From the NCBI GenBank assembly GCA_963805855.1, contig CAWDVW010000005.1, forward strand, positions 64,001 through 128,000: a stretch of DNA of 64,000 nt, in the 5' to 3' direction. The notes under the pieces are model-generated. The model had not been told where the DNA came from. It saw nothing but the letters and a program-made list of their open reading frames with translations, and made no database searches. Both the position numbers and the translations under genes were made by a program. Of the stretch, positions 10,895 to 56,839 are shown in pieces. Every line of letters begins with the position of its first letter. Position 1 is the stretch's first letter. The stretch is from Candidatus Dadabacteria bacterium. Its GTDB lineage: Bacteria > Desulfobacterota_D > UBA1144 > Nemesobacterales > CSP1-2.

Positions 10895-11815
10895 CTATGG
10901 TTTCAGAGTTAATACTGCACAGGGAGATTCTTGAACTACCTTTTCTGTTACACTCCCCAAAATAAGCCGCTTAACCCCCTTTCTTCCGTGAGAATTGATT
11001 ACTATTAAGTCAACGCTTTTACTAGATGCATACTCAACTATCGCGACCGCAGGATTTAGTTTCTGAGTCATCGCCGTGCTGATTTCTAATTTTTTGACCC
11101 CTTTTTTCTGAGTCCCGCGCCTCGCCTTTATCTCCTCAATCCTTTTTTCAAGTTCCTTAGAAGAATCCTCCAACAACAGTTCCATTACACTGGAATGAAT
11201 TCCATAGTCAGAATAGTCGTAGATGCTTAACTTGAAAACGTACATAACTGAAATATTGGCGTCTATCCTCTCCCCTAAGTCTATCGCATAGTTGATGGCA
11301 GAGTCTACCTTTTCATCTATGTCTAGTGGAACAAGAATATTACGTATATTCACCTCACTTTTTCCATCACGCTTCCTGACCGCCAGCACGGGTATACTGG
11401 ATTCTCTTAGGACTCTAAGCGTCGTGCTTCCGACGAGCATCCTATCTATAAGCCCGAGTCCTCGTTTCCCCAAAACTATGAGGCTTGCTTTCTCATTATG
11501 GGCAAATCTAACAATCTCCTTATACGGTTCTCCTTTTAAAATTTCTCCTCGAAAATTAAGTCCCTGACCACTCAGATCATCGGCAGTTGCAGCTAATCTC
11601 GCAGCAAAATCCCCTTCAGCCTTTTTTAACCACCCGTAGTGTTCGCTTTTAGGATCTGTAACGTAGTCATATATCAGTCTTTCAGGCATTTCAATCACAT
11701 GAACACCTATTATTTCTGAGTTGAATCTTTGGGCAAAAAATCTTGCATAGTTTAGAGCCTCCTCAGATTCCTTTGAACCATCGGTAGCCCAGATTATCTT
11801 TTCCATTTCTCTCAT
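10895..11815 (-). CDS. Universal stress protein, tandem USP domains
   Basis: KIIWATDGS, GKRGLGLIDRMLVGST, ILVPLD, SHGRKGVKRLILGSVTEKVV; ORF 10895..11854, likely start at 11815 after GGAGG. Confidence 0.92.
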   Translation of the reverse strand: MREMEKIIWATDGSKESEEALNYARFFAQRFNSEIIGVHVIEMPERLIYDYVTDPKSEHYGWLKKAEGDFAARLAATADDLSGQGLNFRGEILKGEPYKEIVRFAHNEKASLIVLGKRGLGLIDRMLVGSTTLRVLRESSIPVLAVRKRDGKSEVNIRNILVPLDIDEKVDSAINYAIDLGERIDANISVMYVFKLSIYDYSDYGIHSSVMELLLEDSSKELEKRIEEIKARRGTQKKGVKKLEISTAMTQKLNPAVAIVEYASSKSVDLIVINSHGRKGVKRLILGSVTEKVVQESPCAVLTLKP

Positions 11816-12026
11816 AAGGTTCGTCCCTCCCTGATACGGCCAAACACAACTCAAAAAACGCCGCGCTTAAACACGTTACCGCAATTTAATTTACACCTCA
11901 ACTGATACATACCCGTATCAATTGCAGTTAGCAAGATCTATGGGCGTCTTGCCTTAATCTTATACTATAAACTCGATTTATAATCCGGGAGTAAGTATGA
12001 GGTTGTCAGAATTTAGTTTTCAACAA

Positions 12027-12104
12027 AAATGGTGGAGGATGGAGGACTAAAGCCCTCCTCTACAAAAAAATCAAAACAATGTAGCGGCGACCTTTAGGTC
12101 GCCA
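12027..12104. repeat. REP-like doublet (GTAG class), copy 1
   Basis: GGAGGACTAAAGCCCTCCTCTAC (12041-12063) and GTAGCGGCGACCTTTAGGTCGCC (12081-12103) in inverted orientation; direct repeat of 17788..17864. Confidence 0.7.
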
Positions 12105-12498
12105 AGAACACCTCACTCAGCCAGTCGGGGATTGTAAATGTTACGTAAGTCAGCAACAGTATCTTAGATTTTAAATGGGCATTCAAAAAATTTCCAAAAT
12201 CAATTCCGGAAGCGTTAAAAAAAGATTTGGGGTTGTGGTTGGATTAAATATTTTTAGCTGTAGGAATTGATTTAATAATTCCTAATTTTTTGTAGCCCTC
12301 GATTTTTGTTTCTTTGTATCAAGACAAAGAAAAAAAATTAAACAATGGATTCCTGATAAAAAAGTTCGAGGATGACGGAAGAGTAAACTTCCAGTAAATC
12401 TATTATTTTTTGGATTTTGTCCACGAAATATCTAACATCTACAGGGGATGACAGAATACCGGATGCCCCCAAATTTTTGAACCAAAAGCGTATCAGGT

Positions 12499-14202
12499 TC
12501 AGGGCTGGCCCAAAGAGACCTTTCTTATTGGAACTGTTTCATTCATCATCGATCTTATCTTTTCTAACCCAACGCGGTCACAGAAGTCGCCAAATCTTTC
12601 ATCATTCATTGTCATATTTTTATACAAATCCAGTAAACTACCTATTCTATCAGCCAGTACCGAATCATCGACATGCTCTTCGAAAAGCTTATTAAGTCTG
12701 GTCCCCTCATAATTCCCACCGAGATAAATATTGTATTTATGAGGCGAAGTCCCTATGATTCCGATTTCAGCGATGGGCGGTCTTGAACATGAGTTTGGAC
12801 AACCACTCATGCGCATTTTTATATCTTCCTCTCCAAAACCCCTTTTTTCTAGCTCATCTATAAGTGATGGTAAATATCTCTCAGATTCCGCAAGAGCAAG
12901 TCCACAAGTAGGGAGTGCTGGACAGGCCATAGCATTGGTCCTTAGTCTAGAATATTCACTTTCTGTTTTAATCCCGTATCTTTCTAACTTATTTTTTAAC
13001 TCTCCTATTTTCCCCGTTGGGATATTAGTCAGCACGACATCTTGCAATGGGGTGAGCCTAATTCCAGGGCTGAAATTACGGACGATTTCACGGAGACCTT
13101 TTTTCATTTTACTTTCTTTTGTGTCTTTGATTCTTCCATTTTCGACGAATATACCTACATACCAGAGACCTTGTGTGTTTTGTTCGTGCCATCCCAGATG
13201 ATTTTCTATATTGCTAAGTTTCACAGGCTTTGGGTTTGAAAGTTTACGTCCCAGCCTCGTCTCGAGCTCATTCCTGACTCTTTGAACGCCCCATTCCTCT
13301 ACTACGTACTTTAGCCTCGCGTGTTTTCTGTCTGCCCTGTCGCCATGGTCTCTTTGAAATTCGACGATCCTCGTAACTGTGTCGAGTAGTCTTTCGGGTT
13401 CAACAAACGCTATCGGATCGCCGAGGCGAGGATAGGTCTTAGCCTGCCTGTGCGTGGTTCCCAGGCCTCCGCCAACCATTATATTGAATCCCAGCAGTCT
13501 TTCATTCAAGACGGGCACAATTCCAATATCGTGTGTGTGCACATCGATGCAGTTATCATCAGGATGCCCTATGCCGATTTTGAATTTTCTTGGAAGATAG
13601 GTTTTACCATAAATGCTTTCTGCCTCATCATCATCGGTTATTCGCTCGCCATTCACCCAGATTTCGTGATAAGACTTAGATTTAAAACTTAGCTCTTCAG
13701 ATATTAGTCTCGCCCATTTCTGAGTGTCAAAGCTTGATTCCTTCCTGATATCGGAAACAGGACAAGCAACCGTATTACGGTTCCCGTCTCCACAAGCACC
13801 ATAAGTTGAAATTTTTTCTGAATTTAGAAGTTGAATTGCTCTTTTGAGATTGCTTTTACCTACTCCATGAAATTGAATGTCTTGCCTTGTCGTAATGCGG
13901 AGGGTTCCATCGGCACACTGATCAGATATTCTATTCAGGACTTCCCACTGCTCTCCCGAAAGCTCTCCGCCTGGATGCTTGGTCCTTATCATGAAAATGT
14001 ATTTCTTATCTTTACCCTCTGTCTTAAGCGCCTGCCTCAGGTCTCTATCATCTTGCTGGTATATGCCGTGGAACTTTAGAATTTGATAATCTTCATGTGA
14101 AAAATGGTCAGTTTCTTTCCTGAGTTCTTCAGCGATTGAGCCACGTAAACCATTACTGTCTTCTTTGATGACTTCGACTTTAGATTTTTGAATACCGCCC
14201 AT
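12499..14202 (-). CDS. cysI: Siroheme sulfite reductase hemoprotein (CysI/Sir family), probably ferredoxin-dependent
   Basis: LKFHGIYQQDDRD, RITTRQDIQFHG, YLPRKFK, CPALPTCGLA and GCPNSC siroheme/[4Fe-4S] ligands. Confidence 0.9.
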   Translation of the reverse strand: MGGIQKSKVEVIKEDSNGLRGSIAEELRKETDHFSHEDYQILKFHGIYQQDDRDLRQALKTEGKDKKYIFMIRTKHPGGELSGEQWEVLNRISDQCADGTLRITTRQDIQFHGVGKSNLKRAIQLLNSEKISTYGACGDGNRNTVACPVSDIRKESSFDTQKWARLISEELSFKSKSYHEIWVNGERITDDDEAESIYGKTYLPRKFKIGIGHPDDNCIDVHTHDIGIVPVLNERLLGFNIMVGGGLGTTHRQAKTYPRLGDPIAFVEPERLLDTVTRIVEFQRDHGDRADRKHARLKYVVEEWGVQRVRNELETRLGRKLSNPKPVKLSNIENHLGWHEQNTQGLWYVGIFVENGRIKDTKESKMKKGLREIVRNFSPGIRLTPLQDVVLTNIPTGKIGELKNKLERYGIKTESEYSRLRTNAMACPALPTCGLALAESERYLPSLIDELEKRGFGEEDIKMRMSGCPNSCSRPPIAEIGIIGTSPHKYNIYLGGNYEGTRLNKLFEEHVDDSVLADRIGSLLDLYKNMTMNDERFGDFCDRVGLEKIRSMMNETVPIRKVSLGQP

Positions 14203-14287
14203 TCACTTAATCTCCCTGCTTCCTTGTTATCAAAGAAATCCTCATTCCGCAAACCAAAGCACCCAAATTAAGATGCCCAGAATGTTA

Positions 14288-14584
14288 TTATTTTTCGTAA
14301 GGCGGATTACTCACTATTTTTGTATCCTCTGGTGGAGTTCTTAAATCCGGAAATGCGTTTCTATTCTTCGCAATAAAATCTCTCCATTTATCCGGTAGCT
14401 CATCTTCATGGTATATAGCGTCAACCGGACAGGGATCGACGCATGCACCGCAGTCTATGCATTCTTCCGGATGTATTAAGAGTTGATCTGCGCCCTCGAT
14501 TTCATAAATACAATCTACCGGGCACACTGCAACACATGATTTGTCTAAGGTGCCTATGCAAGGTTCTGCGATTATATAAGCCAT
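14288..14584 (-). CDS. fdxA: FdxA-type (7Fe) ferredoxin
   Basis: C-x7-CVAVCPVDC and CIDCGACVDPCP motifs. Confidence 0.88.
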   Translation of the reverse strand: MAYIIAEPCIGTLDKSCVAVCPVDCIYEIEGADQLLIHPEECIDCGACVDPCPVDAIYHEDELPDKWRDFIAKNRNAFPDLRTPPEDTKIVSNPPYEK

Positions 14585-14762
14585 GAGTAACCCCCCTAAC
14601 GAAATTTTTAATTATTATTCTCAGCCCTTTATCAAGAGATTTCCTTCCATTTCGTTTCCTATCGCCTAAATTTAAAACCTACTTACATAACATTTCTTTT
14701 GCTTAAAAGCATCTCTCCGATGGTTAAGTCTTGATATCAGCATTTTGTTCTAAACTAAATCC

Positions 14763-15914
14763 CTACCCGCGAAAACCCTCTAGCGTTTCTCTCATGCTTG
14801 ATTTTGCAAGCTTCTCTATTGCTGCTTTTTCGATCTGCCTTATGCGCTCACGAGTAATCCCAAATTCCCTTCCAAGTTCGTCTAATGTGAACGTATCATT
14901 TCGATCTAGGCCATACCTCATCCTAAGTATCTCATTTTCCCTGGGAGTAAGAAGCGTTAAAGCATCCTTTATTTTCTCTTTAAGTGTTTCCCTATCAGAT
15001 ATCGAATCCGGGGCTGGTAACACCTCATCCACCATAAAATCGAGCAGTGTATTTTGCTCCGTTGCTATTATGGGTGAGTCCAGGCTGATAACATTTTTCT
15101 CCGCATTCAAAATCCTGTGTACAAGAGTGACAGGAATTTCTAATTCCCTTGCAATTTCTTCAGGAGTTAGTTTTCTTTTCATCTCCTTTTGAAGCATTGA
15201 GCATATTTTGTATAACTTGCGCGCTTCCTCCTGCAGATATACTGGCACCTTTATTGTCCGTGTCTGATCCATAAGCGACCTCCCTGTCGCCTGGTGTATC
15301 CACCATGAAGCATATGTTGAAAATTTACAGCCCATTCTGTGGTCAAACTTATCTACAGCTCTCATCAAGCCGATATTGCCCTCCTGAATAAGATCCGGTA
15401 GCGGTAGTCCCATGCCGACGTATCTCTTCGCGATACTTACAACTAATCTTAAGTTCGCTCTCACAAACCTATCTTTAAGTCTCTTTGCTGTTGCCGAGTA
15501 TACTTTCACTAAAGCTTTGAGAATATTCTCCTTGCTTGATCGCCTTTTATCCTTTCTGATTTTATGTCGATCCCCATTTCTGGAACTATTCTCTTCTTCC
15601 CTTCTTGATAACCTATCCTGCAGTGTCTTTATTTCGTCTATCTTTGATTGGCATTTCTTTATTGTTGCTGATATCTCTATCTCATCCCTTCGAGTAAGTA
15701 GCCGTTCACTTGCCATGACTTTAAAATAAGGGTAGAGGATTCTAAACTGCTCATCTAAAGTCCTATCCACTTTATCCGGGGAACGCGGTTGTTCGAGTTC
15801 GATCCCCTGTTTGGGCTCCACCATATCTGCCATGGTATCTTCGAGGTCAGAATATGTAAAAAAGCCCTCGCCTTCCCGAACAAACCCATTAAACTCTATC
15901 TCGTTTCTCTTCAT
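14763..15914 (-). CDS. RpoD/SigA-like sigma-70 factor, divergent paralog
   Basis: [64 protein letters not shown]. Confidence 0.92.
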
Positions 15915-15927
15915 CTTTTACTACCGT

Positions 15928-15960
15928 CCCAATTATTAGCAAGGATACCTAATAATTAGG
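15928..15960. promoter_or_regulatory. Pair of 13-bp palindromic candidate operators upstream of the sigma gene
   Basis: CCTAAT-A-ATTAGG (15948-15960) and CCCAAT-T-ATTAGC (15928-15940), 20 bp apart. Confidence 0.45.
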
Positions 15961-15998
15961 AATGCTAAATAAGTCCTCTAAATTTTTTTAGTTCATTC

Positions 15999-16631
15999 TT
16001 AACTCAGAGCCTCTTTGTAATCAGGGCACTCCATGTAAATTTCTTTTTCACTCAACAAAATATTTAGACACCTGCAGTAATGAGGTTTTTCCGATCCCGG
16101 ATACTTATTTGAGATAAAAAAACAACAAGATCTGCATACATCCATGGAAAATCCGTATCCTTTCTCTATGAGCTTCCTGGCTAATTTCATAAGAAGCTTA
16201 CCCAAAATCTCTTGTTCTTCGTGATTGAATTCCGAAATTAATTTTTCTATTTCTTTGCCAAAATTTTCAAATACGCTTATAGCCCTAATACCCTTGGGAG
16301 TCAAGCTTACCAAAACCCTTCTTTTATCATTTGATTTTCTGCTCCTGACGATAAATTTCTTGTTTTCCAGAGTATCAAGTATACCGCTTATAGTAGCGGG
16401 AGTGCATGTGAGGTGTTTTGCAAGTGTATTTACAGTAGCGGCGTCGGGTCTTATATATTTCAAGAACAAAAGTGACTGCACCTGCGTAGGCGTTAGATGT
16501 TTTGACTTGCTCTCATCCCACTGAAGGTGCTTTATAGCTTTGCCTATGGTGAACAGAGTCCGCGATATCTGAGCACTTACATTCCCCTGCCTGTATATTG
16601 GATCGAATATAGACTTATTTGATCCCGTCAT
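15999..16631 (-). CDS. MarR-family regulator with Cys-rich C-terminal extension
   Basis: LTPTQVQSLLFL...TISGILDTLENKKFIVR..DKRRVLVSLTPKG winged HTH; tail CRSCCFF...HYCRCL...ECPDY. Confidence 0.88.
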   Translation of the reverse strand: MTGSNKSIFDPIYRQGNVSAQISRTLFTIGKAIKHLQWDESKSKHLTPTQVQSLLFLKYIRPDAATVNTLAKHLTCTPATISGILDTLENKKFIVRSRKSNDKRRVLVSLTPKGIRAISVFENFGKEIEKLISEFNHEEQEILGKLLMKLARKLIEKGYGFSMDVCRSCCFFISNKYPGSEKPHYCRCLNILLSEKEIYMECPDYKEALS

Positions 16632-16652
16632 TTTGGATTCCTAAATACTTTT

Positions 16653-16681
16653 ATACTATCAAACCGCGACTAACGTGTCAA
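16653..16681 (-). promoter_or_regulatory. sigma70 promoter of marR (TTGACA-17bp-TAGTAT, extended -10)
   Basis: Minus strand TTGACA 16681-16676, 17-bp spacer, TGa-TAGTAT 16658-16653. Confidence 0.65.
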
Positions 16682-16793
16682 ACCTGGCGATATAAATTTA
16701 TCTATCTTAGGAGTAAGTGCCACTTCTCGAGAAAACCAAGGGTATTGCTTAGCTGAGGAATTACGCGCCCAAGCTAAAGGCTGCGATTCAACC

Positions 16794-17585
16794 CTACATC
16801 TTAACTGCCAGTAGAGAGATGCTTTTTACACCAAACTTCTTGCTAGCACCCCGGGCATTATCAGAGATGAATTGATACTGCGGATTATGCTGTACGGCCT
16901 CTACGCGCAGGCCCGCTGCTTCAATAGCCGCGCGGTAACTATCCTGTTGCATGGCGCCCCCGATGCAGGCCGCCCACAGTGTAGTATTGCACGTGATACC
17001 GTCCGGAAGTTGCATCTCGGTTACGATGTCCGAGATCGTAAGGCGTCCGCCAGGTTTCAGCACCCTTCGAGCCTCCTGAAAAACCTTTGCTTTGTCGGGG
17101 GCAAGATTGATCACCCCGTTGCTGATTACGGCATCGAAGCTCTCGTCTTCGCAAGGGACAGCATCTATGTAGCCCTTGAGATAGGTGATGTTATTGAATC
17201 CCGCCCGGTCACGAAGGCGCTCCGCCTTGGAGCGCTGTTCATCAGTCATGTCGACTCCTACCACTCTGCCACTCTGTCCCACCTTCAAGGCGGCAACGAA
17301 TGTGTCCATCCCCGATCCACTGCCAAGATCAACTACGCTTTCACCCTCATTCAGCTTCAATAGATGGAAATAGTAACCGACGCCGGCAAACGAATCGATC
17401 GCTTCCGACGGGATCCGGTCAAGGTCTTCTGGTGAATAGCCCAATCTTTCCGCCATGGCGCGTCCCATCTCGAAGTGGAACTCTCCATGAGGGTTTACCG
17501 CAACATCGCGGTACATGTCCTTAACCTTTTGTTCCAGTTCAGACTCATTGATTGATTTAATAACGGCATCTCTTTTTGCAGCCAT
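16794..17585 (-). CDS. SAM-dependent methyltransferase, ArsM-like
   Basis: VVDLGSGSGMD, GVDMT, FDAVISNGVINL, VLKPGGRL and WAACIGGA motifs. Confidence 0.85.
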   Translation of the reverse strand: MAAKRDAVIKSINESELEQKVKDMYRDVAVNPHGEFHFEMGRAMAERLGYSPEDLDRIPSEAIDSFAGVGYYFHLLKLNEGESVVDLGSGSGMDTFVAALKVGQSGRVVGVDMTDEQRSKAERLRDRAGFNNITYLKGYIDAVPCEDESFDAVISNGVINLAPDKAKVFQEARRVLKPGGRLTISDIVTEMQLPDGITCNTTLWAACIGGAMQQDSYRAAIEAAGLRVEAVQHNPQYQFISDNARGASKKFGVKSISLLAVKM

Positions 17586-17787
17586 ATTCCCCTCCTGTAA
17601 CTTTGATAAGAACTCCTTGTTTCTCTTCTTCCAAACCGCTAACCACTTATTATACAGATTTTCTCTTTATTATAAACCGAAACATCCCACCCACGCCAAG
17701 GACACGTCATGTATACCGGGTCCAAGATTCCTACAGTAGAGGGAATCTTCGCACCGCCACGCAGGGATAGAAAACCCCGCTAGTAGG

Positions 17788-17864
17788 AAATGATGTAGGA
17801 TGGAGGACTAAAGTCCTCCGCTACGAAGAATCATAATAATGTACCGGTGACCTTTCGGTCGCCA
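17788..17864. repeat. REP-like doublet (GTAG class), copy 2
   Basis: GGAGGACTAAAGTCCTCCGCTAC (17802-17824) and GTACCGGTGACCTTTCGGTCGCC (17841-17863). Confidence 0.7.
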
Positions 17865-18153
17865 CCCATACCCCAATGAGACATTCCGAGATGCGACATT
17901 GTCATCCTTCGACCTGGCTCAGGATGTCCGGGTTCAGGCGTTCCCGTCCATGTAACTCAAGGATAGGGATGCAGACCACGGGTCTGTCCTTAACCTTATA
18001 CTATGAACGCCATTTACAATCCGGTCATAAGAACGGGGTTTTTAGAATCTATCTTTCAAGGAGTTCAAGCAGCTATTTGCGCGACTTTTCTATCCCAAAT
18101 GGTATAAAGTTTAGCACTGACCCCAAAGACGTTTTAAAATTATGGGAGAGAAA

Positions 18154-18226
<73 letters not shown>

Positions 18227-18380
18227 AAGCAAATAATCCGAATATTTGATTATTAGCTAAATAAAACACATAAAAATAATTTGAATAATTGGGGCTAATT
18301 TTACCCAAACGGTATTTTGTTGCAAGCCAATTTAGGTCTAATTTGTAGCGATTGGATTAGATATGGGACAAAAATTACAG

Positions 18381-18433
18381 AAAAAAAAGGAGCAGGGCTA
18401 ACCTTGTAAATTATTACTAGCCGCCCTGCCCCT
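18381..18433 (-). terminator. Possible intrinsic terminator downstream of the porin gene
   Basis: AGGAGCAGGGC...GCCCTGCCCCT stem (long loop) followed by a U-run on the minus strand. Confidence 0.4.
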
Positions 18434-18485
18434 GCCCACGCAAAAGAGGTATGGAGAGATGAGTACGTGGTTTCCGTTTTTATCC

Positions 18486-19901
18486 TTACAATTCAGGCGC
18501 TGATTCCACCGTTTTTTCCGGCTCGAACTCGCCTGTATCAAACCAATAAAGAAGCTGTGCGGATAATTCATATTGATTCTTATTTAACTCCCCATCCTTC
18601 CTCAGGAAGTAAGGCTCATTGGCCCAATCCCATCTGAACTCTCCTCTCACTTCTAGGTTATCTAGATACTTACTGCCAATTGCAAGACCCTTAAATGGTC
18701 TTACCGCAAGCGTTGGCGTCAACTCGAAGAATTTCGTTGCAGATGAGTCGTTAGCAAATGTCCTGAATTGATTCCTATCCTTGAAGTACTCGCCCCTCAA
18801 AGTAAAATCCACCACATCTTTGTATAGATCAACTATTGCATAACCGGCAACTCCCCACCAGAAAGCCTGTTGATCGTTCAAGTCCAAATCAGCACTTGTG
18901 ATCCCCTGCTGCCATCCAAAGTCAGCATCAGCTACCAAAGTCAGTCTATCCATCAGTGTTACGGAGCCAACAACTGTCAACAGATTTCTCCAATCATCGT
19001 AAACAATTACATCGGGATCATCTTCAGATTCTTTTCCAAAATATCCCGTCAGTGCTACAGATGCCGCATTTAACCACGGAGTGATATCTTCCGTCCCAAG
19101 GGCGACCTGTGCTTCCAGTGTAAAATTCCCATCATCGTTCTTGACGGTATCCCACCCATTATTCATACCAAGATAAAAGTCAAGCGGACCGGCACCGTAG
19201 TGGGCTCTGATACCTGTGTGTGTAAAGGGTATGGCAAAACCAAAGAGTATTGAACGGCTGATATTAGGATCATTCCGTGCTTCGATAACCTCATAACCAG
19301 CGAGTGTAACAAATCTACCGGCATAAAAATCGATGCCGTTGCCCACAGGGGCAATCGCATGTATAAAGAGTTGATATGGACTTATCACATCGCTTTCCAA
19401 ACCAGCAGCAGACAATGGAGAAGCTTGTTCACCGAATAAAACATCGGCGCGAAAGCCTATCAAGTCCCAGACGTCATCACCGAGTACTGGATCTTTCGAA
19501 AGTGATAACGTAAATGCGTTGATGCTAAACTGGTTTTGATTCGGGTAAAGAGAACGTAATAGAATATCCTGGTCATTAGGTTGATGAAAAGCACCCTGAT
19601 AGGTGGTGTCCAAATAGAATCCGATTTTCAGGGATTTCCATAATTTTACGAGCGCATCGAGCTCTGTGTCATGTTCCTGCTGCTTTACATAGAGCTCTTC
19701 CACCCTTTTGTCATCAGCAGCTTTCTGTGATTCTAGTTGCTGAATCCTTTGTTTAAGTTCTTCATTCTCTCTCTGATTCTGTTCGATCATCCTTTTTAAG
19801 TCCTGTATCTCCTCTTTCATCGATTGTGCATGCGCTTTCAGACTCGACATCGGAAATAGAGGCAAAGCAATTATCAAGAACCATAATCTAAAAAGTTTCA
19901 T
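18486..19901 (-). CDS. Outer-membrane beta-barrel porin (OmpL-like/BBP2 type) with N-terminal coiled coil
   Basis: Signal peptide ending AHA, coiled coil, GRFVTLAGYEVI, NISRSILFGFAIPFTHTGIR, NGWD and RGEF motifs; downstream of amtB. Confidence 0.8.
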   Translation of the reverse strand: MKLFRLWFLIIALPLFPMSSLKAHAQSMKEEIQDLKRMIEQNQRENEELKQRIQQLESQKAADDKRVEELYVKQQEHDTELDALVKLWKSLKIGFYLDTTYQGAFHQPNDQDILLRSLYPNQNQFSINAFTLSLSKDPVLGDDVWDLIGFRADVLFGEQASPLSAAGLESDVISPYQLFIHAIAPVGNGIDFYAGRFVTLAGYEVIEARNDPNISRSILFGFAIPFTHTGIRAHYGAGPLDFYLGMNNGWDTVKNDDGNFTLEAQVALGTEDITPWLNAASVALTGYFGKESEDDPDVIVYDDWRNLLTVVGSVTLMDRLTLVADADFGWQQGITSADLDLNDQQAFWWGVAGYAIVDLYKDVVDFTLRGEYFKDRNQFRTFANDSSATKFFELTPTLAVRPFKGLAIGSKYLDNLEVRGEFRWDWANEPYFLRKDGELNKNQYELSAQLLYWFDTGEFEPEKTVESAPEL

Positions 19902-56386: not shown

Positions 56387-56839
56387 ATGGGTACAAAGTA
56401 TAAGGGGACTCAAAAGGAAATAAGGGCGCTAAACGCTTTTATCAATTTCATGCGGGCTGCAGACAGTGTAAGTTCAAGACTGTCTCGGTTACTTGCTAAG
56501 CATAGATTAACTACGAGCCAGTTCGGCGCGCTAGAGGCTCTATATCACCTTGGGCCACTCAGTCAAAACGATCTGGGGAGGAAGCTCCTTAAAACTAGCG
56601 GCAATATAACGATGGTAGTCGACAACCTTGAAAAACGAGCCCTCGTAAAAAGGGTTCGGAGCCCAGAAGACCGTAGATCAGTAAGCGTGACGCTCACTAA
56701 GGATGGGGGCAGGCTTATTGAAAGCATATTTCCACAGCATGTGGGGTCGATCGTTGCTGAGTTTGAAGTCCTAAATCCGGGAGAACAGGAAGTCCTTCGC
56801 CATTTATGTAGAAAACTCGGGAAGCATGAAAGGGACTGA
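56387..56839 (+). CDS. MarR-family regulator (MhqR-like)
   Basis: LTTSQFGALEALYHLGPL, TSGNITMVVDNLEKR, DRRS motifs. Confidence 0.92.
   Translation: MGTKYKGTQKEIRALNAFINFMRAADSVSSRLSRLLAKHRLTTSQFGALEALYHLGPLSQNDLGRKLLKTSGNITMVVDNLEKRALVKRVRSPEDRRSVSVTLTKDGGRLIESIFPQHVGSIVAEFEVLNPGEQEVLRHLCRKLGKHERD

Follow-up and report, generated by a model that had tools for sequence, protein, structure and literature searches.

Background

ArnR is a winged-helix regulator whose C-terminal cysteines bind a [4Fe-4S] cluster, and SufR is cited in the report describing it as another winged-helix regulator with such a cluster; both are repressors whose DNA binding depends on the cluster (PMC12343034). Rv0737 of Mycobacterium tuberculosis is reported to be a MarR protein that binds the sigL-rslA promoter and is associated with oxidative-stress phenotypes (PMC13002591). 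Here we analyze a locus in which a MarR-family gene with a C-terminal cysteine tail (marR) precedes the gene of an RpoD-like sigma factor, at positions 12499-16681 of a 64-kb window (the whole stretch of DNA analyzed, C5:64001-128000) from the genome of a Candidatus Dadabacteria bacterium (assembly GCA_963805855.1, contig CAWDVW010000005.1; 3.11 Mb, 9 contigs, 93.8% complete). The ORF (open reading frame) list gives four minus-strand genes in this region, encoding the MarR protein, the sigma factor, a ferredoxin (fdx) and a sulfite reductase (sir). Sequence comparison indicates that the conserved unit is two genes, the four-cysteine-tailed MarR and the sigma factor with their putative operators, and that fdx and sir are lineage-specific cargo.

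ArnR (Corynebacterium) and SufR (cyanobacteria and actinobacteria) resemble the protein studied here in combining a winged helix, a dimerization helix and a short C-terminal cysteine domain, with a possible histidine, that is without a family model. ArnR carries three cysteines (179, 193 and 223), whereas four are found here in the spacing C-x2-C-x16-C-x15-C, and no sequence relationship was detected between them. Rv0737 is alike in being a MarR protein that acts directly on a sigma-factor operon; its target, as described there, is an extracytoplasmic function sigma factor with its anti-sigma factor, whereas the sigma factor here is RpoD-like, with regions 1.2 to 4, and has no anti-sigma gene. 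The original prediction had not recognized the layout as a described system; a case of a MarR protein that targets a neighboring sigma operon has been published (Rv0737/sigL-rslA; PMC13002591).

OhrR, MosR and similar proteins have the MarR fold and are oxidative-stress repressors freed by cysteine oxidation; the wider tail family occurs near peroxidase and thioredoxin genes. The sensing cysteine of OhrR-type proteins lies inside the MarR core; here the conserved cysteines all lie in an added C-terminal module. AdcR and ZitR are metal-set MarR proteins, ZitR being among the Foldseek matches of the present protein. Their metal sites are built from His, Glu and Cys within the core, in place of which a C-terminal Cys4 module is found here. 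Lastly, the reductase resembles ferredoxin-dependent sulfite reductases (CysI without CysJ) in its domains, its motif, an adjoining ferredoxin gene and the fact that cysJ was not found; the enzyme itself is ordinary, and what is unusual is its lineage-specific position behind a sigma gene.

The closest mechanistic relatives are ArnR and SufR, with OhrR-type thiol-based MarR proteins also close; as no sequence link to any of them was detected, membership in these groups is not claimed. There are separate precedents for redox- or metal-sensing MarR proteins, for Fe-S (iron-sulfur) winged-helix sensors and for circuits leading from a MarR protein to a sigma factor; the tail module is unnamed in Pfam and NCBIfam, and no paper on a MarR protein with a C-x2-C-x16-C-x15-C tail was found in the literature, supplements aside. 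(An apparent "MarR" match in PMC11928373 is the surname Marritt.)

Results and discussion

Gene order of the locus and its relatives

The genes of the locus, in the order in which they would be transcribed, are as follows:

15999..16631, minus strand: marR, winged-helix regulator of the MarR family, with four cysteines in a C-terminal tail, 210 residues (family profiles and predicted model)
14763..15914, minus strand: alternative RpoD-like sigma factor, 383 residues, regions 1.2, 2, 3 and 4, no region 1.1 (family profiles)
14288..14584, minus strand: FdxA-type ferredoxin, 98 residues, lineage-specific cargo (family profiles)
12499..14202, minus strand: assimilatory sulfite reductase hemoprotein of CysI/Sir type, 567 residues, lineage-specific cargo (family profiles)

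The intergenic gaps are 84, 178 and 85 nt from marR to sigma, fdx and sir in turn. The initial description of four co-oriented genes behind a TTGACA/TAGTAT promoter was borne out, all four being on the minus strand and the promoter being the best in the region.

Full-length tail-bearing MarR relatives were found in 12 of 41 related genomes, and a profile of the tail matched 33 of the 120 genomes of the phylum, with a single copy in each except G007, which has two. By family, matches occur in 6 of 14 genomes of f1 besides the window's own, in both genomes of f5 and in 24 of 33 of f2; none were obtained in families f3, f4, f6, f7 and f8 (0/37) or f9 (0/19). Among 29 related loci from a species-representative collection, a sigma gene stands downstream of marR on the same strand in 26, and the other three end no more than 315 nt past the marR stop. 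Two of the 26 sigma genes have an internal stop. Three families keep the marR-sigma order, even where MarR identity falls to about 50%.

What follows the sigma gene is most often a convergent lytB (18/26 loci) or a beta-carbonic-anhydrase-like gene (9/26); both f5 loci have a BtrH_N/DUF4872 protein there, and two f1 loci a 182-residue protein designated c11. Ferredoxin and sulfite reductase genes follow it in one locus of 26, L024, which is from the same genus. The four-gene synteny that had been expected was therefore recovered for its first half (26/29 loci) and not for its second (1/26), and fdx and sir could not be upheld as part of the system, given this single occurrence, sir orthologs lying apart elsewhere and no operator before either gene. 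The proposed position of MarR upstream of sigma in a regulatory chain gained support from the conserved pair and, as described below, from conserved putative operators.

Several loci document other arrangements of sir. The CSP1-2 locus L046 has the order sigma-c11-rhodanese-sir. In G007, which has an intact marR-sigma pair on another contig, the second copy is decayed (L014, G007:C704, 1662-5762): marR is intact and 75% identical, sigma is reduced to a 125-residue ORF comprising the N-terminal 65 residues and region 4, fdx is intact (87% identical), and sir survives only as a fragment of residues 1-75, followed by a 634-residue Sir paralog of 31% identity. G012 has sir on another contig, but its marR contig stops right after marR. 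When the sigma-fdx and fdx-sir spacers of three loci were aligned, no convincing common promoter or operator was seen.

The c11 family (about 180 residues; L023 8822-9370; L021 4025-4600 and 8469-8771) has no Pfam or NCBIfam match. It directly follows the MarR-linked sigma in two f1 genera, and in G010 it is found close to a second copy of sigma. The window's own genome has three paralogs (C5:996460, C5:341956, C6:92105), none of them beside a sigma gene. One further candidate, ORF c45 in L016, was discarded as a spurious Arg-rich overlap frame.

Putative operators and promoter

Comparison of the upstream and spacer sequences of all loci revealed a 15-bp palindrome, TTTAGGnnnCCTAAA, at two places, upstream of marR and in the marR-sigma spacer. 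The corresponding features of the window are:

16653..16681, minus strand: promoter-like site of marR, TTGACA, 17-nt spacer, TAGTAT, with TG before the -10 hexamer (10 of 12 matches, top score in the region)
16631..16645, no strand assigned: putative operator O1, minus-strand reading TTTAGGAATCCAAAA, 1 mismatch to TTTAGGnnnCCTAAA, between the -10 hexamer and the marR ATG
15980..15989, minus strand: A7T3 tract just past the marR stop; a similar A/T tract precedes the spacer operator in nearly all related loci
15955..15969, no strand assigned: putative operator O2, minus-strand reading TTTAGCATTCCTAAT, 2 mismatches, in the marR-sigma spacer
15939..15953, no strand assigned: weaker putative site O2', minus-strand reading ATTAGGTATCCTTGC, 4 mismatches, an inverted repeat centered 16 bp from O2

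With up to two mismatches, the palindrome stands no more than 80 nt ahead of marR in 28 of 30 loci, and all 27 loci having a sigma gene contain it in the marR-sigma spacer, as compared with 14 such sites in the remaining 350,525 nt of the same loci; as the consensus was derived from the loci in which it was then counted, and these loci are relatives, the fractions overstate independence. A second, weaker site with 2-3 mismatches is centered 16 bp further in 20 of 27 spacers. Because of the relatedness of the counted loci, a cleaner, genome-wide test was made in five other genomes (about 3 Mb each, about 15 Mb in total). Six perfect copies of the palindrome were counted there, and five belong to the marR locus, where four are in the spacer and the fifth lies a short way upstream of marR; a reversed control pattern gave three sites in one of the five genomes and none in the other four. 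In four of these five genomes the spacer operator is the best-matching site genome-wide.

O1 covers the AGGA ribosome-binding site and also takes in the A of the marR ATG. The promoter scan by itself is not significant, the 12 promoter-like sites in 11800-17000 being equal to the shuffle expectation of 12.0; the marR promoter is credible because of its position and its conservation, as locus L024 of the same genus has an identical site and TTGACA stands at the corresponding place in L046, L040 and L044. The A7T3 tract is possibly an UP element or part of a promoter. No terminator-like site was predicted on the minus strand in the spacers between the four genes, and an Rfam scan of 11000-18500 gave no riboswitch or other RNA family besides one tRNA.

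The MarR protein and its cysteine tail

The regulator matches the Pfam models PF01047 (41.3 bits, cut-off 24.6) and PF12802 (29.6 bits, cut-off 27). An AlphaFold2 model of the full-length protein (predicted local distance difference test, pLDDT, 79) is a canonical MarR structure to about residue 156, followed by a less confident hairpin and helix. Foldseek matches of this model were MepR, ST1710, ZitR, MarR, RovA and MexR over some 133-146 columns, with a probability of 1.00 for MepR, ST1710, MarR, RovA and MexR, which places the protein in the MarR fold; the matches to PDB structures end before the tail. Thirteen NCBIfam models matched, with no SufR or ArnR model among them, and those of OhrR (28.5 bits, cut-off 200) and AdcR (32.9 bits, cut-off 175) fall far below their cut-offs. 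The remaining part of the protein is the following feature:

16002..16154, minus strand: cysteine tail, residues 160-210, C166-x2-C169(C170)-x14-P-H184-Y-C186-x15-C202-P (alignment of relatives)

Across 49 aligned relatives, C166, C169, C186, C202 and H184 are invariant, giving the spacing C-x2-C-x16-C-x15-C with a histidine two residues before the third cysteine. The tail had first been written as CxxCC...CxC...CP; the four invariant cysteines of that pattern stand, but the second cysteine of its CxC (C188) is not conserved and C170 is conserved at about 90%. Many f2 members have an additional cysteine three residues ahead of the last one, forming a second C-x2-C (CKEC).

No Pfam or NCBIfam family covers the tail, and PDB sequences searched with the tail profile gave chance-level matches only (E above 1). 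In the ESM Atlas, the tail alone reached a best score of 0.84, below a meaningful level, and the whole protein retrieved generic MarR clusters only.

Occurrence of the tail in other phyla

When 1.84 billion representative sequences were searched with a profile of the final 56 residues, 165 clusters (50% identity) matched at E <=0.001, most of them proteins of about 200-225 residues with the match at the C-terminus. MarR domains were found in 10 of 10 members scanned, and in none did a family match the tail. The exact C-x2-C-x16-C-x15-C spacing, with the histidine two residues before the third cysteine, is present in 69 of 94 listed proteins of 185-250 residues. Three members of this wider family gave only generic MarR matches in NCBIfam, and source names read simply "MarR family". 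The family occurs in Thermus, rhizobia, Sphingomonads, Bacteroidota, Nostoc and Deinococcus, and a tblastn search of plasmid records with one wider-family member returned 61 records (Thermus 25, Ensifer 9, Paraburkholderia 6, and others).

Gene neighborhoods were counted in 13 plasmid records from 12 organisms, with genes as annotated in the records, and the counts rest on these records rather than on the 165 clusters. The four cysteines are kept in all 13 plasmid-borne proteins, and genes of redox or nitric oxide (NO) defence lie within a few genes of the tail-bearing marR in 9 of the 12 organisms. In Thermus, cytochrome P460 is encoded immediately upstream, with msrA nearby and nir-type genes in one strain. 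Hymenobacter has genes for catalase, a tyrosine-coordinated heme protein and protoglobin in one run with it, and hmpA and an Rrf2 regulator close by. Sphingopyxis and Sphingomonas have a universal stress protein upstream and a thioredoxin-like gene and redoxin downstream; the neighbors in Nostoc are thiol peroxidase, thioredoxin, MOSC and globin genes; in Deinococcus an Rrf2 regulator and a peroxidase-related enzyme; and in Tistrella a TlpA disulfide reductase. Pararhizobium and Rhizobium SL42 have catalase, together with TlpA or a peroxidase-related enzyme, MOSC and truncated hemoglobin. The neighborhoods in Paraburkholderia, S. fredii and Spirosoma were uninformative. A sigma gene adjoins the tail-bearing marR in none of the 12 organisms and lies within about 3 kb in two.

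On Thermus thermophilus plasmids L060 and L064 the tail-bearing marR begins 9 bp after the cytochrome P460 gene, and HB27 pTT27 carries this pair.

By association, and in a plasmid-only sample, these neighborhoods plausibly point to the sensing of oxidants or NO and not of sulfur; the sulfur-status sensing first suggested for the MarR protein found no support, the neighbors of the tail family being peroxide and NO defence genes. The tail marks an unnamed MarR subfamily that occurs across phyla and is probably redox-sensing. The module is common, and it is found in culturable, genetically tractable hosts such as Thermus thermophilus, so that its biochemical study could define a new sensor type.

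Proposed mechanism and alternatives

We propose that a MarR dimer would bind TTTAGGnnnCCTAAA at O1 and at O2, with the weaker O2', and hold down both marR and the sigma gene. Because the palindrome is conserved at both places and is near-unique genome-wide, the most likely action of MarR is to repress its own gene and that of sigma through the predicted operators, and comparative genomics argues strongly enough for this step that we regard it as highly probable. The four cysteines and the nearby histidine would hold a metal-thiolate center, either an Fe-S cluster or zinc, and if this center were oxidized, nitrosylated or lost, DNA binding would weaken and the sigma gene would be freed. The motif and the neighbors in other phyla suggest that such a center gates DNA binding, a step for and against which we find the case evenly balanced. 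The released sigma factor, group-2-like with an RpoD-type region 4.2, would then redirect RNA polymerase to a regulon. In this genus, fdx and sir downstream might be read through from the module or might be sigma-dependent; read-through is possible because no terminator is predicted in the minus-strand spacers. Control of fdx and sir by the module is the weakest step, and a doubtful one. Taken together, a two-gene regulatory module acting as the functional unit by these steps, with the four genes not forming one system, is on balance the reading we think probable.

Several observations weigh against this reading or its parts, in addition to the relatedness of the loci from which the operator was derived. 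Both local sites, O1 and O2, are imperfect in the window's own genome, where nine sites with no more than one mismatch stand against about 10 expected by chance and no wider regulon is visible. No operator site lies in front of fdx or sir in the window, which tells against control of these two genes; as this holds together with the chance-level genome count, the direct regulon looks local, comprising marR and sigma. No sigma-70-like promoter was recognized in the marR-sigma spacer, so either transcription from the marR promoter would continue into the sigma gene, with O2 as a roadblock, or the sigma gene would have its own promoter off consensus. Confidence in the modeled tail is low (pLDDT 49-76 within the full-length model, 55 alone), Thermus members have a shorter loop (C-x2-C-x10-C-x15-C) and no histidine, and the features of the tail would fit Fe-S or zinc alike and a sensing or a structural metal site alike. 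The sigma tree described below does not separate the MarR-adjacent sigma factors of f1 and f5 from the paralogs of the window's own genome. Finally, fdx-sir is linked to the marR-sigma pair in 3 of 11 tail-holding genera.

The linkage just mentioned bears on a dedicated four-gene cascade as originally envisaged, in which the tail would sense sulfur, redox or Fe-S status and free a sigma factor that specifically drives a ferredoxin-fed sulfite (or nitrite) reductase. The co-orientation, the short gaps and the spacers free of predicted terminators fit such a cascade, as does the linkage of sir to the pair within f1, which is seen in genus g1, in g5 (where rhodanese, another sulfur gene, is added) and, in decayed form, in g6; fdx is beside sir only in g1 and g6. 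Against it, carbonic-anhydrase-like genes and lytB are commoner than fdx and sir behind sigma, and the sir orthologs of G040 and G024 (59-69% identity) are found on different contigs from marR. The marine genus g15 has sir, and tail-MarR was not found there; in the five other genomes whose sir neighborhood was examined, no fdx lies beside sir. The missing operators ahead of fdx and sir, and a wider tail family that keeps company with peroxide and NO defence genes and not with sulfur genes, argue in the same direction, and we consider the cascade unlikely.

Another alternative concerns the tail alone, which might be a structural zinc site, for example a dimer-stabilizing Cys4 knuckle, in a MarR protein that answers a small organic ligand in the usual pocket. 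Four cysteines including a C-x2-C pair are typical of structural zinc sites, the CKEC of many Dadabacteria members supplies a second such pair, and zinc-binding MarR proteins exist, ZitR being among the fold matches and the AdcR model matching weakly. The thiol-peroxidase, thioredoxin, catalase and globin neighbors in 9 of 12 organisms argue instead for a redox signal, and two isolated cysteines, the last before a proline, are nearer to known Fe-S regulators than to a two-knuckle ribbon. The alternative also overlaps with the proposed switch, in that a Zn(Cys)4 site can itself be a redox switch. In its purely structural form we find it rather improbable.

A functional link between the two genes might also be missing altogether, MarR autoregulating only itself, the spacer palindrome being a leftover and sigma being controlled independently. 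The lack of a recognized promoter in the spacer would agree with this, but the spacer operator is kept in 27 of 27 loci despite diverged surrounding sequence and is the best genomic site in four of five genomes, and the gene order extends across three families with divergent MarR proteins, which makes independence very unlikely. That MarR acts instead as an anti-sigma factor by direct contact, its tail resembling the ZAS zinc motif (H-x3-C-x2-C), is scarcely credible: gene adjacency and a Cys-rich tail are all that speak for it, and the tail (C-x2-C ... H-x-C ... C-P) lacks the ZAS spacing, no anti-sigma family matched in Pfam or NCBIfam, the conserved operators already suffice as a DNA-level mechanism, and the tail family has no adjacent sigma gene in the 12 organisms of other phyla examined.

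Beyond the two-gene module, the tail might represent a new multi-phylum MarR class that senses oxidants or NO through an Fe-S or Zn(Cys)4 switch added to the end of the MarR dimer. In most phyla its members would exert direct control over genes for peroxidase, thioredoxin, catalase and globin. In Dadabacteria the sensor would have been wired to an RpoD-like sigma paralog, forming a two-tier cascade, which in this genus would have captured fdx and sir, so that sulfide for cysteine and Fe-S repair would increase along with the stress response. Thiol-stress sigma factors of actinobacteria (sigma-R, SigH) induce cysteine and sulfur-assimilation genes, a precedent that would give a rationale for the capture. 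We offer this extended scheme tentatively, as a possibility on the improbable side.

To our knowledge, Dadabacteria have no cultured members. The marR-sigma pair would be their first concrete regulatory circuit with a predicted operator, and a handle on why RpoD-like paralogs are so numerous in their genomes. As for the sulfite reductase, that portion of the original prediction is ordinary metabolism.

The sigma factor and its paralogs

The sigma factor matches Pfam Sigma70 r2, r3 and r4, and its N-terminal block aligns to TIGR02997 from residue 63. It falls below the cut-off of every RpoD and RpoS equivalog, the best being NF004208 (299 bits, cut-off 555), with RpoD_Cterm at 269.7 bits (cut-off 354). 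The primary RpoD of the genome is a protein of 527 residues (NF004208 481.6 bits, RpoD_Cterm 348.4) encoded directly after dnaG (TIGR01391 445.9 bits, cut-off 283.6). Region 4.2 of the MarR-linked factor (TRERIRQIE) is identical to that of the primary RpoD, and region 2.4 differs from it (WWIRQAITRS) at three positions. At least six further RpoD-like paralogs of 390-446 residues, 37-52% identical to the MarR-linked sigma, and two sigma-32-like genes (about 300 residues) are present in the genome. Because a separate RpoD adjoins dnaG and at least six paralogs exist, the factor is one of a paralog family and not the housekeeping factor. By these profile scores it is classed as a group-2-like alternative sigma-70, falling outside group 1 RpoD. 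Its earlier description as an extra sigma holds in that it is a non-primary RpoD-like paralog; it is not unique.

A quick tree of 32 sigma factors places the MarR-adjacent factors of f2 type in a clade (Shimodaira-Hasegawa-like approximate likelihood ratio test 93). It excludes two sequences with an internal stop (L037, L039), two that are truncated at contig ends (L025, L042) and the pseudogene C5:381999-383166.

The RpoD-like paralogs lie at C5:944702, C5:835529, C5:4553, C6:308433, C3:28964 and C2:566447, with the broken copy at C5:381999-383166. The set is unusually large for a 3.1-Mb genome, and a Cys-tailed MarR gene precedes the window's copy only.

Ferredoxin, sulfite reductase and sulfate assimilation

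The pattern of 7Fe FdxA-type ferredoxins is C-x7-C-x3-C-P plus C-x2-C-x2-C-x3-C-P, and the ferredoxin has the corresponding cysteines (C9, C17, C21-P; C43, C46, C49, C53-P). Its best model, FdxA_Actino, gave 109.3 bits (cut-off 125) and FdxA_Protbact 79.9 bits (cut-off 135); its naming as a 7Fe FdxA-type ferredoxin is thus supported by the cysteine pattern and not by the FdxA models, which remain below cut-off. A paralog at C6:150232 is 79% identical.

The reductase scores 689.7 bits with NF010029 (cut-off 457) and 207.4 bits with the NirA model, with duplicated NIR_SIR and NIR_SIR_ferr matches, and falls below the stricter cut-offs of TIGR02041 CysI (547.7) and TIGR02042 sir (522.7). It carries C-x5-C and C-x3-C, the siroheme/Fe-S motif. 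Genes for a sulfate permease (cysP), sulfate adenylyltransferase (sat; 588 bits, cut-off 387) and APS/PAPS reductase (cysH; 288 bits, cut-off 154) stand in a row at C5:599.7-602.7 kb, about 520 kb away, and uroporphyrin-III methyltransferase and CbiX chelatase are present for siroheme synthesis. Searches of the genome (93.8% complete) found no cysJ, and neither a cysG N-terminal domain nor dsrA above cut-off. That the window lacks cysJ, cysH, cysDN and cysG, as first observed, agrees with these searches, sat and cysH lying at C5:601-603 kb; the label "stand-alone" for the reductase has to be given up, since cysP-sat-cysH elsewhere in the genome supplies its substrate. Because cysP, sat and cysH are present and cysJ was not found, sir and the ferredoxin are best read, from gene content, as the missing and ordinary last step of ferredoxin-dependent assimilatory sulfate reduction.

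A distant NIR_SIR-type paralog (C5:31256-32962; 25% identity to Sir, in a 728-residue open frame) lies about 45 kb before the locus, outside the window.

Neighboring genes

Directly upstream of marR, at 16794-17585 (minus strand), is a gene for an ArsM-like S-adenosylmethionine-dependent methyltransferase, which scores 224.7 bits with an arsenite methyltransferase subfamily model (cut-off 263) and is retained as neighbor of marR in the same genus only. A tRNA gene (RF00005, 71.7 bits; 18154-18226, minus strand) lies between it and an OmpL-like porin gene.

Past the sir stop, about 640 bp (11855-12498) without a minus-strand ORF of at least 50 residues separate sir from a gene for a tandem universal stress protein. 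This gap has no Rfam match; it contains several short inverted repeats and an operator-like site with 2 mismatches at 12093-12107, and a terminator-like hairpin at 11875-11862 lies immediately before the start of the universal stress protein gene.

A second MarR gene in the window, at 56387-56839 (plus strand), encodes an ordinary protein of about 150 residues without a cysteine tail, which is 37% identical to the Cys-tailed MarR over residues 45-152 (C5:120501-120824).

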